Source of the DNA: Octopus vulgaris
Lineage: Eukaryota
Length of the DNA: 64,000 nucleotides
Reading direction: 5' to 3'
Assembly (NCBI GenBank): GCA_951406725.2
Contig: OX597837.1
Location: forward strand, 12,772,001 to 12,836,000
The notes under the pieces were generated by a model. The model had not been told where the DNA came from and made no database searches. It worked only from the letters and a program-made list of their open reading frames with translations. The first letter of the stretch is position 1. Every line of letters begins with the position of its first letter. Positions 3,386-58,632 of this stretch are shown here, piece by piece. The translations under genes were made by a program, and so were the position numbers.

Positions 3386-4846
3386 ATGTCGAAATTTACC
3401 AAGGAAATTAAGCGTTATTATTCGTGTCGATGGAGATTATGCTATGCGTGTGGTGTGGCTTTTCTTCTGCTTCAGACTTTGAGAGTCGATCTAAGTATGG
3501 CTTTTGTATGCATGTTGAAAACACCCAATCGTACAACTGAGGAAGTTAAAAATTCTACAAACAACCAACTTTGTTCTGGTTTGGAAAATCATTCCACGAA
3601 CCAAACTTTCGAAGGAGAGTTCGAATGGAGCAACTCACTACAATCTAATATGTTGGCTGGGTACTTCTATGGGTATATGGTGACTGTTTTGGGTGGTATA
3701 TTGGAGGACAGATATGGTGGGAAAAGAGTTCTGGGAGCTTCCCTTCTCTCAGCATCTATTCTGACCATTCTTCATCCAAGTTTATCTCGAATTAGTGGTT
3801 ACATTACGCTTGTTCTAAGGATATTAACAGGAGCAGTATCAGGGTTGTTGCCCCCAGCAATTCAGTCCTTATTTGGACGCTGGGGACCTCCACAAGAGAT
3901 AGGTTCTTTGATAGGGCTTTCATTTGCAGGTCAACTCCTTGGAAGTATTGTGGGTCTTTCAATATCAGGTTACCTTTGCGTATATGGATTCGATAATGGA
4001 TGGGGTTCTATATTTTATGTATTTGGTGGAATATCGTTGGTGTTTAGTTGTATGTGGTTTTACGTTGTTTATGATAATCCAGACGTCCATCCCACTATTA
4101 GTGAAGAAGAACGTTCGTACTTAAAAAAAGCAATAAAGAGTGAAAATGCTGTTAAAAATGTACCGTGGAAACGGATGTTCTTATCACCGGCTGTCTGGGC
4201 AATAAACTTTGGCTTGTTTGCCTATGGCTGGACGAATATATCTTTCATGGTATTACTACCTTTATATATGAAAGAAGCCTTACACGTTGATACAACATCC
4301 AACGGTTTAATGTCGTCTGCTCCTTCCATTGGACAAATCATTGCTTTTCCGTTGTGTGGAAGATTTGCAGATTTTTTACGTTCAAAGAAATATCTCTCAA
4401 CGCGTTCTGTTCGAATTTTATTCCAATCCTTTTCCATGGTGGCTTCAGCAAGCTTGTTGATAGCCATAGGATTTCTCAGATGTGACAAAACCGTTCTAAT
4501 AACTCTCCTTTTGTTTCTCAGTGGTATAACTCTATCATTTTCCAGTGGTGGTGTTATCGTCAACAATAATGACATCGCTCCAAGTTATGCTGGTATTGTA
4601 TTTGGAATTGCAAACACCTTTGTGTCAACGGCAGGCAGCCTTAGTTCGTTGGTTGCAAAAGCTCTCACCCCAAACGGTACACAAGAAGAATGGCAGATCG
4701 TGTTTGCCTTATGTGCTGCTATATGTGTATCTGGTGCGATATTATTTGCAATATTGGTAAAAACAGAAATCCAAGACTGGGCAAACTGGGGGAGATCTAG
4801 CTCCTCCGTTCATCCTAGCGACACGACTATAAGTAGAATAGCTTAA
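3386..4846 (+). CDS. Sialin-like SLC17 family MFS transporter, copy 1 (486 aa, intronless CDS)
   Basis: SLC17 motifs LRVDLS, EFEWS..QS.MLAGYFYGY, D(R/K)YGGK, GW.SIFYVFG, D.P..HP.IS.EE, VPW, LP.YMK, DIAP.YAG, EW..VF. ATG 3386 aligns with the starts of the paralogs; the ORF-track start is a TTG extension. Confidence 0.93.
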   Translation: MSKFTKEIKRYYSCRWRLCYACGVAFLLLQTLRVDLSMAFVCMLKTPNRTTEEVKNSTNNQLCSGLENHSTNQTFEGEFEWSNSLQSNMLAGYFYGYMVTVLGGILEDRYGGKRVLGASLLSASILTILHPSLSRISGYITLVLRILTGAVSGLLPPAIQSLFGRWGPPQEIGSLIGLSFAGQLLGSIVGLSISGYLCVYGFDNGWGSIFYVFGGISLVFSCMWFYVVYDNPDVHPTISEEERSYLKKAIKSENAVKNVPWKRMFLSPAVWAINFGLFAYGWTNISFMVLLPLYMKEALHVDTTSNGLMSSAPSIGQIIAFPLCGRFADFLRSKKYLSTRSVRILFQSFSMVASASLLIAIGFLRCDKTVLITLLLFLSGITLSFSSGGVIVNNNDIAPSYAGIVFGIANTFVSTAGSLSSLVAKALTPNGTQEEWQIVFALCAAICVSGAILFAILVKTEIQDWANWGRSSSSVHPSDTTISRIA

Positions 4847-5160
4847 CTACGTCACTGAATATTTTTCTTTATTGCAAATGGCGTCAATTTTATCATGAAG
4901 GAGTTCATAGGTATATGTTGTAAGTACCTAAGTATCTACATCAATATATATATATATATATATATATATATATATATATATATACATGTATGTCTGTCTA
5001 TCCGTCTGTCTGTCTATCCGTCTGACTGTCTGTCTGTATGTATGTATGAATGATGTATGTATGTATGTATGTATGTATGTATGTATGTATGTATAACAGC
5101 GGTTGTGAAGTGGTGATTGGGATAAAACACAAACACACATATAAATATATTTATATATAA

Positions 5161-5226
5161 TCTACTGACGAAGCTTCGGTCGGCCCGAGGCTATAGCCTC
5201 GGGCCGACCGAAGCTTCGTCAGTAGA
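5161..5226. repeat. Perfect 66-bp palindrome (no spacer) derived from SINE sequence
   Basis: tctactgacgaagcttcggtcggcccgaggcta|tagcctcgggccgaccgaagcttcgtcagtaga. Confidence 0.95.
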
Positions 5227-56700: not shown

Positions 56701-57162
56701 AAAGCTTGCACTTTCTAATTGTAAAACTTTTCAATATCGATCATATTATTAACAAATATTCAGATTAATACATGAGTGAATTTCAAGTAATTATTGTTTT
56801 GTGTTTTAATACTTCTTTTTGTCCCAGCATGTATAGACAAAGGGAAGTGGAAGCAGGTCACACCTTTTAGTAGATGGATTCATAAACTTCTTTTCATTAG
56901 TTGAAACAAAAGAACCCCTTAAATGTATTGACTTGAGTGATTGGAACTGGTGTTAACCATGACTTTATTCGGGCTCCATCTCTGAACGCATGCCAGCGAT
57001 ATTTATTTTTTTTTTTATATTTTAGAATTAAAAAGGAATAATAATTATAATCTGTTATAAAATTCACCCGGAGGCTGGACTAAACAATGTTGTGGACCAT
57101 AATTTTGACATTCCTGCGAGAGATTTATTTACTCTGACCTCCTGTTCAGACACAACCATTCC

Positions 57163-58632
57163 TCATCCTTTATTTTCTAGGTTCATTGGCTCTTCCTGAG
57201 AACCGTCTTCTGCCGAATCTTCTTTGGAAATTGCCCAAGCCTGGACATCCCCTTTTGCCAATATTGCATACAGTATGGCTCCTAAAACAGAAAAAGCAGC
57301 ACACATAAATAATACATGCTGCCATTCCCTTTGTGTGCCATTTGGTGCAATTGCCCTGGCCACTAAAGGTGCAAATAAGCCAGGTAATGAAGCGAATGTA
57401 TTGCTAATTCCGAATAACACACCAGCATATCTTGGCGCCACGTCAATATGGTTGACGTTAAAACCAGACATGTGTAATGATATGCTTGCACCAGACAAAA
57501 GGAAAAGAGCGCCAGTTAGAGTGGTTTGGGAACATTCTAGAAACCCTATGGCAATAAGTAAAGAAGCTAAACAAATGAAACATAGTGACTGAATTAAAAC
57601 ACGAAAGGAGCGTTTGGACATATAATTCTTTGAAATAAACCAATCTGCAAATCTTCCAATTAATGGTAGACAGATAATTTGTCCAATAGATGGAGCAGAC
57701 GACATTAAACCGTTTGATTTGGTGTCGATATTCAGAGCTTCTTTCATATAGAGAGGTAGCAATAACTGAAAGCTGATGTCAGTCCAATTTAAACATGTGT
57801 GAGCTATGATGAGAGCCCAGACAGCAGACGATAGCATAATTTGTTTCCAAGGTATATTTTTGACTTTTTTTGTAGATGTTATATTTCGCTTTAAGTAAGA
57901 ACGTTCTCTTTGGCTGATGGTGGGATGGGTGTCCGGGTTGTCGTGAACAACATAGAACCAAACAAGACTAAACAGCAGTGTTGCTCCACCAAATATATAA
58001 AATATCGAACCCCATCCGTTGTCAAATCCATACGCACAAAGGTAACCCGAAATTAACAAACCTAAGATGCTACCTAACATCTGACCGCAAAACGTGACTC
58101 CGAGTAATATACTACTCTCCAGTGGAGGAGCCCACCTTCCCCACAAGGAGAGAACTGAAGGGAACATCGGTCCCGATACCAGCCCTGTTAATATCCTTAA
58201 TGCAACTGTGAAGTAAGCACTTATACGAGTCAGACTCGGATGAAGAATGGCAAATATAGCTGATGAGAGAAGAGTGCCACCTAAAACCGTCTTACCGCCA
58301 TATTTGTCAGCGAAAACTCCTCCGAACATAGTTGAGGCTATGTAGCCATAATAATAACCTGACAACATGTTTGACTGTAAAACATTACTCCATTCGAACT
58401 CTCCCTCAAAATTGTTGTTTAACGAATGGTTTTGTAAGCGGTGACATTGTTCGTTCTTTCTAGTAAAGTTGGCGCCATCTGTCGTACGATTGGGTGTTTT
58501 TAACATACAAACAAACGCCATACTTAGATCGATCCTTAACGCCTGCAACAGAAGCAGGGCTGTAAAACACATGTAGCATAACCTCCATCTACATGAGCAA
58601 TAATGAGAAATGCACCGAGTAAACATCGACAT
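57163..58632 (-). CDS. Sialin-like SLC17 family MFS transporter, copy 6 (489 aa, most divergent, intronless CDS)
   Basis: LRIDLS, DKYGGK, WGRWAPPLE, GWGSIFY, HPTIS..E, IPW, NHIDVAPRYAG..FGISNT; ATG 58632 aligned to paralogs. Confidence 0.93.
   Translation of the reverse strand: MSMFTRCISHYCSCRWRLCYMCFTALLLLQALRIDLSMAFVCMLKTPNRTTDGANFTRKNEQCHRLQNHSLNNNFEGEFEWSNVLQSNMLSGYYYGYIASTMFGGVFADKYGGKTVLGGTLLSSAIFAILHPSLTRISAYFTVALRILTGLVSGPMFPSVLSLWGRWAPPLESSILLGVTFCGQMLGSILGLLISGYLCAYGFDNGWGSIFYIFGGATLLFSLVWFYVVHDNPDTHPTISQRERSYLKRNITSTKKVKNIPWKQIMLSSAVWALIIAHTCLNWTDISFQLLLPLYMKEALNIDTKSNGLMSSAPSIGQIICLPLIGRFADWFISKNYMSKRSFRVLIQSLCFICLASLLIAIGFLECSQTTLTGALFLLSGASISLHMSGFNVNHIDVAPRYAGVLFGISNTFASLPGLFAPLVARAIAPNGTQREWQHVLFMCAAFSVLGAILYAILAKGDVQAWAISKEDSAEDGSQEEPMNLENKG

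Follow-up and report, generated by a model that had tools for sequence, protein, structure and literature searches.

A 64,000-nucleotide stretch of the Octopus vulgaris genome (assembly GCA_951406725.2, contig OX597837.1, positions 12,772,001 to 12,836,000 of the forward strand; hereafter the window) carries, in microsatellite-rich animal DNA, six copies of one SLC17 transporter gene. Their coding sequences contain no introns; five copies lie on the plus strand and one is inverted. Judged by their sequences, the copies are a real, selected and octopod-specific variant of SLC17 that is wrongly labelled sialin. Three layers of change relative to human sialin (SLC17A5) were distinguished, lying at different depths: the loss of two glutamates from transmembrane helix 4 (TM4), the presence of an Asp in TM1 with a His in TM3, and a remodelled substrate pocket, and only this last, octopod layer is special. 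The part worth testing is the TM7 Asp together with the loss of R195, K197 and the pocket tyrosines. Residues are numbered throughout after human sialin, by way of a gap-free alignment of TM1, TM4 and TM7 to the structure 8dwi.

The Pfam family MFS_1 was recognised in all five intact copies (486 to 491 amino acids), and the closest solved structure by sequence was human sialin (E = 7e-95). Annotated Octopus sinensis and O. bimaculoides proteins matched the copies at 84-99%. The best matches of every intact copy were Octopus and Argonauta proteins, and copy 6 was 99% identical to an O. sinensis 'sialin-like' protein; the copies therefore belong to an octopus tandem cluster. An AlphaFold model of copy 4 (predicted local distance difference test score 87.4, 102-sequence alignment) matched lumen-open sialin best (Z = 50.8, root-mean-square deviation 1.9 Å, 435 residues aligned, 37% identity), followed by VGLUT2 and DgoT, and according to this model the copies have the 12-helix major facilitator superfamily fold, nearest to SLC17 structures. 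The motifs quoted in the first-pass annotation of this DNA were all recovered: Q(T/A)LR(V/I)DLS in TM1 and LRILTG(A/V/L)(V/A)(S/L)G in TM4 of the six copies, and in TM7 WTNISF (copies 1 and 2), WTSISF (copy 3), WTDISF (copies 4 and 6) or WTDLSF (copy 5). The equivalences to sialin that it drew also held in the 8dwi alignment, namely the replacement of N59 by D, E171 by T, E175 by S or L and F305 by D, N or S, with both R57 and R168 kept in every copy; at position 183, His was found in copy 4 only, with Gln in copies 1, 2, 3 and 5 and Leu in copy 6. The fold, R57, R168, D350 and the R39-E194-E262 triplet of human sialin are retained, whereas E171, E175, Y54, F305, Y306, L309, Y335 and K197 are replaced and H183, R195 and Q207 are mostly replaced. 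The octopus proteins also differ from sialin in their cytosolic N-terminal tail of only about 14 residues and in forming a separate clade.

The phylogeny was built with FastTree from 194 proteins. These were selected out of 321 for filling 85% of the core, and 18 of the vertebrate hits were retained. The copies fell into a 167-sequence, mollusc-dominated clade (support 0.96), which also contained annelid, nemertean, rotifer and nematode proteins, and did not group with the vertebrate sialins. A 52-sequence cephalopod subclade was recovered with support 1.0 (100 in the Shimodaira-Hasegawa-like approximate likelihood ratio test), and 41 proteins of the octopod cluster, including those of Octopus and Argonauta, formed one long-branched clade (support 1.0). 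In the cluster, R57 was kept in 34/35 and R168 in 41/41 proteins, and the cytosolic triplet and the motif-A Asp were likewise preserved (R39 29/31, E194 38/41, E262 41/41, D350 40/41). Neither E171 nor E175 was present in any of the 41 proteins. The same state, with no acid at either position, was observed in 110 of the 114 non-cephalopod clade members with both positions filled. It was shared by 15 vertebrate hits of the 120 around SLC17A4 and by 81 of 116 distant representatives; another 17 of these representatives had both acids. The distant set was drawn from 150 listed representatives of 50% clusters, of which 12 that were already among the other sequences and 19 fusions or fragments were dropped; 116 could be scored for TM4 acids. 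The loss of the TM4 glutamates is thus ordinary and the majority state among relatives; it is not new and carries no implication of non-anionic cargo. It had been presented as the novelty of these proteins and was rejected as the mark of a new subfamily, the majority of relatives sharing it and NPT anion carriers being reported to have it. The claim that the copies are not H+/sialic acid symporters of the sialin type fared better. Substitution of E171 or E175 by Gln each removed about 95% of sialin activity (PMC9858498), double mutants lost >60% (PMC11116495), and the loss of both residues argues against sialin-type symport, which on the sequence is very unlikely. This negative statement is much safer than any claim about cargo.

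Glutamate loss is equally what would be seen if the copies were ordinary NPT-like exporters of organic anions, voltage-driven rather than proton-coupled and diversified for dietary or waste anions, with D305 only tuning affinity or pairing transiently with R57 in place of E175. We regard this as a serious possibility, albeit a doubtful one. NPT transporters are stated to lack proton-binding residues and to carry organic anions (bioRxiv 2026.05.20.726482), the two arginines are kept in the cluster, and F305 and R57 jointly close the path in inward-facing sialin (PMC9858498). In three SLC17A4-like hits from vertebrates, R168 is retained alongside Q171 and Q175, and others have pocket acids at 203 or 302. 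In oyster, too, the SLC17 family has many members (PMC9679248), and bivalve SLC17 or sialin genes, which show a digestive-gland response to domoic acid, are mentioned around its handling without being identified (PMC6410316, PMC8310042). The octopus copies resemble NPT1/3/4/5 (SLC17A1-4) in lacking TM4 proton-binding acids and in a Q-type substitution in the H183 region. They nevertheless form a separate lineage, the NPT-like hits nesting with vertebrate sialins in the tree; in most of these hits R168 is gone while R195 and Y306 remain, and neither the D59-H153 pair nor D305 occurs in any of them. This NPT-like set consisted of vertebrate hits, and human NPT1 and NPT4 were not among the sequences. 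Sister molluscs are also already devoid of the glutamates and yet retain R195, K197, Y54, Y306 and a net pathway charge of about +2.8, features that the octopod cluster has lost as well (R195 in most of its proteins).

The second layer was traced through a gene of the cephalopod clade that occurs as a single copy; it was found in Argonauta, Sepia pharaonis and three Octopus species. Each of these 8 coleoid orthologs combined D59, H153, R168, T171 and S175 with an otherwise conventional pocket (Y54, H183, R195, K197, N305, Y306, Y335), and on these sequences the TM1 Asp is coleoid-wide. It had been described as invariant, which holds for the window copies and fails across the octopod cluster (D in 30/35, N in 5/35). 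The accompanying TM3 His, H153, had been overlooked; it was absent from every non-cephalopod clade member and from all 117 distant representatives. D59 alone was found elsewhere, in 9/106 non-cephalopod clade members, 4/114 distant representatives and two marsupial proteins. The latter, SLC17A4-like P0185 and P0208, have Q168 and R171 alongside D59; in these proteins the TM1 Asp arose independently and the TM4 Arg has shifted by one turn. The idea that D59 compensated the loss of E171 in a single event was rejected, as the glutamate loss is far older and independent pairs gave no signal. Nor do the two Asp residues, in TM1 and TM7, constitute one rewiring as had been supposed, since they arose at different depths on the tree.

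The TM1 Asp had also been expected to face the cargo cavity. The equivalent N59 of lumen-open sialin lines an N-domain tunnel that runs through T153, N59 and R168 to E171 (PMC9858498); by analogy, D59 would therefore lie in the tunnel beside R168, with the new TM3 His, and not in the cavity. In DgoT, R126 contacts N49 (PMC11649914). DgoT shares with the octopus proteins a TM1 Asp next to the TM4 Arg, but its D46 corresponds to sialin position 56, three residues ahead of the octopus Asp, and its partner E133 is absent from the octopus copies. In VGLUTs, neutralisation of the TM4 Arg substitutes for luminal chloride (PMC6057745), which makes a built-in counter-ion for R168, perhaps a pH-sensitive one, the simplest role that can be proposed for D59. 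D59, H153, R57 and T171 were constant across the copies although their codons vary synonymously, and so are held by selection rather than by chance. If D59-H153 or D305 served as a new protonation site, the copies could be H+ symporters or H+/amine exchangers with relocated coupling. This is rather improbable. D59, H153 and R168 do map to the tunnel that holds the proton sites of sialin, DgoT and VGLUT2 (PMC9858498), the pair is fixed together with T171 and S175 in the single-copy orthologs, and the tunnel codons had the lowest ratio of non-synonymous to synonymous differences per site (pN/pS, 0.17). However, this tunnel conservation was not significant in the cluster (p = 0.12), and the pair is dispensable in places, N59 occurring in 5/35 and Tyr or Gln at 153 in 10/41 cluster proteins. 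The absence of an acid at 175 would also leave no obvious relay from the tunnel through R57 to the cytosol. P0251-P0253, the sister group of three in the cephalopod clade, have G59, Y153, no TM4 acid and I/L305-F306, so that neither site is acidic.

The third layer is confined to the octopod cluster. The pocket of sialin is lined by F305 with Y54, R57, Y301, N302 and Y306 (PMC9858498), and the suggestion that the TM7 acid occupies a pocket position agrees with this. In the window copies, Y54, Y306, L309 and Y335 are replaced by Q, I/L, Q/M and S/A, respectively. Gln or His was present at 54 in 35/35 cluster proteins, Q309 in 34/41 and Y335 in 0/41; Y306 was found in 0/41, versus 81/83 sister molluscs (comparison set of 86 mollusc proteins). 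A basic residue was present at 197 in 0/41 cluster and 77/86 sister proteins, and at 195 in 8/41 and 82/86. Position 305 was Asp in 21/41 and Glu in 1/41 cluster proteins, with an acid in 0/110 non-cephalopod clade members and 3/117 distant representatives. The TM7 residue had been read as a replacement of Phe; among the non-cephalopod clade members, Asn is more frequent than any other residue (47/110), and it is present in 8/8 single-copy coleoid orthologs, and the change was therefore N to D. Capture of adenosine-to-inosine edits as its source was considered and dropped, because most cluster-specific changes (Y to Q, Y to I, Y to S, R to I) are not A-to-G. In a second mollusc clade lacking the glutamates (P0276, P0278, P0280, P0288-P0289, P0291-P0294, P0296, P0301, P0305-P0306 and P0310), a conserved TM7 Asp lies one turn away (sialin N302 to D) as an independent pocket acid. 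A distant SLC17 protein, P0321 (JGI/IMG), has LRILTG in TM4 and Asp at 305, a resemblance to the octopod cluster that is apparently due to convergence.

These replacements were summarised as a charge index, R/K minus D/E over 24 pathway positions taken from papers but after the alignment had been seen, which averaged +0.48 in the cluster (20/31 complete sequences at or below 0) versus +2.77 in sister molluscs (0/75). The mean was +3.0 in the single-copy coleoid proteins (0/7 at or below 0), +2.12 in the distant representatives (3/96), +2.86 in seven vertebrate sialin-like proteins and +4 in three VGLUTs. The pocket also evolved faster, with 7.8 parsimony steps per site in the cluster versus 5.7 at other helix sites (p = 0.024), and the relation was reversed among the sister molluscs, with a pocket/other ratio of 0.81 compared with 1.37 in the cluster (p = 0.001 for the rate shift). 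The window paralogs differed in 106/206 pocket versus 820/2970 other comparisons, in line with the proposed per-paralog variation, and diversified specificity among them is plausible from these sequences. In all 10 pairs of the five intact copies, the ratio of non-synonymous to synonymous substitution rates (dN/dS) was 0.20-0.28, with dS of up to 1.4; the intact copies are under purifying selection.

We tentatively favour, at somewhat less than an even chance, the reading that the copies are uncoupled carriers without TM4 Glu, amino-acid-like zwitterions being the predicted cargo of the Asp305 paralogs (copies 4, 5 and 6). With E175 gone, R57 would be permanently free and would still hold a carboxylate or sulfonate. 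Position 305 aligns with F326 of VGLUT2, where the amine of bound 1-aminocyclopentane-1,3-dicarboxylate (ACPD) lies 3.3 Å away while R88 holds a carboxylate (bioRxiv 2022.07.26.501550), and D305 at this place could form a salt bridge with an amine in copies 4-6. R195 and K197 are part of the cytosolic gate network. In VGLUT2, anions are said to be drawn in along a positive cytosolic path; loss of the two residues would remove this attraction and weaken the gate. In the tunnel, R168 would have D59 (with H153) as its permanent counter-ion, a role that falls to E171 in sialin and to luminal chloride in VGLUTs, so that D59 would tune activation and not bind cargo. The copies with Asn or Ser at 305 (copies 1 and 3) would carry neutral or mono-anionic solutes. 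Of the zwitterionic and cationic cargoes that had been suggested, the former thus gains from the amine-contact position of 305 and the loss of R195/K197, and the latter is disfavoured by the retention of R57. The wider proposal of a zwitterion-carrier family (amino acids, taurine- or GABA-like compounds; GABA, gamma-aminobutyric acid), with an Arg-Asp pincer and a coleoid Asp-His proton site, is unlikely; if it held, anion selectivity would be lacking for the first time in a branch of the animal SLC17 family, and proton coupling might have been re-invented there.

VGLUT1-3 (SLC17A6-8) share the fold, the TM1 and TM4 arginines and, at F326, the position of the octopus TM7 Asp. In contrast, R322 (TM7), E191 (TM4) and H128 (TM2) are absent from the octopus copies, which have Y/L, S/L and L there and are therefore not glutamate loaders of the VGLUT type. 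The equivalent of Y306 in VGLUT2 helps hold a carboxylate next to the TM1 Arg (bioRxiv 2022.07.26.501550), and its loss from the cluster speaks against NPT-like anion export as well. Convergence on SLC18, with carriage of cations such as amines or choline-like compounds, would be suggested by a cavity-facing TM7 acid, if D305 is one, and by the net charge of -1 in one cluster sequence; in VMAT, a TM7 Glu binds the amine. It has very little probability, as R57 is kept, 19/31 complete cluster proteins have net charge 0 with only this one negative, and VMAT structures fit far worse than sialin (Z of 38 versus 51, 17-19% identity). SLC18 as a whole (VMAT/VAChT) was not closest, at Z 35-38 and 16-19% identity versus 37% for sialin.

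Several observations weigh against zwitterion carriage by the Asp305 paralogs. Sialin with both TM4 glutamates mutated still had some activity left in one study (PMC11116495). Eight NPT-like vertebrate proteins also had a low pathway charge (+1.0, 2/8 at or below 0) though characterised NPTs carry anions; an acid in the pocket is thus compatible with anionic cargo. The charge gap rests on positions 195, 197 and 305, without which the cluster scores 1.0 and the sister molluscs 0.92, and 19/41 cluster proteins have no acid at 305. This position changed state at least 8 times on the tree, and N and D are one base change apart. A basic 195 (8/41) and an acid 305 (22/41) never occurred together in a cluster protein, but the 3-4 independent pairs behind this pattern are too few for significance, and the co-variation was dropped for that reason. 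The orientation of the Asp residues rests on residue equivalence to published structures. All 53 sequences with D59 lacked both TM4 acids; this link is not phylogenetically independent, 0/15 pairs differing at 171. Finally, 11 ortholog-like pairs differed at 22/224 pocket and 307/3110 other helix sites, indicating no extra conservation of the pocket, and pocket pN/pS was 0.43, not above 1. Positive selection on the pocket was therefore unsupported (by simple counting, with synonymous sites saturated), and relaxed constraint also fits. At the extreme, the copies would be redundant drifting duplicates, their pocket changes a result of relaxed selection in a birth-and-death array and without functional message. 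The broken copy 2, a mosaic of copies 3 and 4 in O. sinensis, the ordinary conservation of the pocket between orthologs and the low depth of the only contigs in runs guessed to be RNA would suit such drift. It is highly unlikely given the low dN/dS over dS as high as 1.4, a cluster common to Octopus species and Argonauta, and nine positions (Q54, R57, N123, R168, T171, Q206, Q309, E262 and D350) nearly fixed across the 41 proteins.

Octopus 'sialins' are listed as a gene expansion in two reviews, which cite Albertin et al. 2015 (PMC6110919, PMC6062618). These are the same genes as the copies, labelled in NCBI 'sialin-like' or 'uncharacterized transporter slc-17.2-like'. Of the undescribed subfamily supposed to be hidden under the sialin label, the expansion is already in print; the accessible text of these papers only names it, and no description of the pocket change was found there. 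Our literature search, with most subscription papers outside its scope, turned up neither residue-level nor functional work on these octopus genes. Further background is given in PMC13207226 and bioRxiv 2026.04.20.719580. The name of this listed cephalopod genome novelty comes from similarity alone and is misleading. The present analysis separates the common invertebrate SLC17 state, without TM4 Glu, from an octopod-specific, charge-neutral and de-aromatised pocket, and it yields a testable prediction of zwitterion versus anion paralogs, with three residues deciding. If the zwitterion reading is true, the chemistry of a medically studied family would be widened.

Coordinates of the six gene copies and of selected codons in the window (residue numbers of the copies are those of human sialin unless a copy 4 number is given first)
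Feature	Position	Strand	State and residues
Copy 1	3386..4846	+	intact, intronless, 486 amino acids (P0001); D59, H153, R168, T171, S175, Q183, N305
Copy 2	8999..10405	+	frameshifted, probable pseudogene; N305
Copy 3	16804..18279	+	intact, 491 amino acids (P0002); S305, K195
Copy 4	25918..27390	+	intact, 490 amino acids (P0003); D305, H183; structure modelled; weak hint of transcription
Copy 4, TM1 codons	26014..26022	+	R33 (carboxylate site; sialin R57) through D35 (in the tunnel; sialin N59)
Copy 4, TM3 codon	26308..26310	+	His131 (sialin T153), cephalopod-specific, tunnel neighbour of D59/R168
Copy 4, TM4 codons	26353..26376	+	R146-S153 (sialin R168, E171 to T, E175 to S)
Copy 4, TM7 codons	26770..26775	+	D285-I286 (sialin F305-Y306; VGLUT2 F326-Y327), pocket
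Copy 5	39086..40549	+	intact, 487 amino acids (P0004); D305, L175
Copy 6	57163..58632	-	intact, inverted, most divergent, 489 amino acids (P0005); D305, H298, H414

Copy 2 carries a 1-bp deletion at 9349/9350, which leads to a stop at 9430 after 143 amino acids, and further deletions of 3 bp and 8 bp near 10156-10174. Its branch accumulated 27 non-synonymous and 18 synonymous changes, compared with 16 and 27 for copy 1. The deletions and the excess of non-synonymous changes indicate that copy 2 is probably a pseudogene. The short N-terminal tail is common to all six copies and is much shorter than that of the single-copy coleoid gene. The tails of the copies contained no [DE]xxxL[LI] motif, which we take to be the dileucine sorting pattern, and residence of the products in the plasma membrane is possible. 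The sequence of copy 4 was present in none of the runs recorded as RNA. Two runs guessed to be RNA contained contigs of low depth that match its coding sequence almost perfectly (1 difference in 288 bases and 0 in 271) and no contigs over its upstream kilobase, which a DNA-sized run covers; this is a weak hint that copy 4 is transcribed.

The O. sinensis protein P0017 matches copy 3 over residues 1-360 (97-100% identity) and copy 4 over residues 361-480 (95-100%); this mosaic may be the product of conversion or unequal crossing-over, or of an assembly that was collapsed. Between the copies, a 599-codon open frame (48307-50106, plus strand) resembles the end of a retroelement reverse transcriptase with a GIY-YIG nuclease and is presumably Penelope-like; its match to the Pfam GIY-YIG family (E = 0.0096) fell short of the cut-off. 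A 484-codon, very AT-rich open frame on the minus strand (29872-31326) had no Pfam match at E 1 and reads like a diverged element similar to that at 48307-50106.

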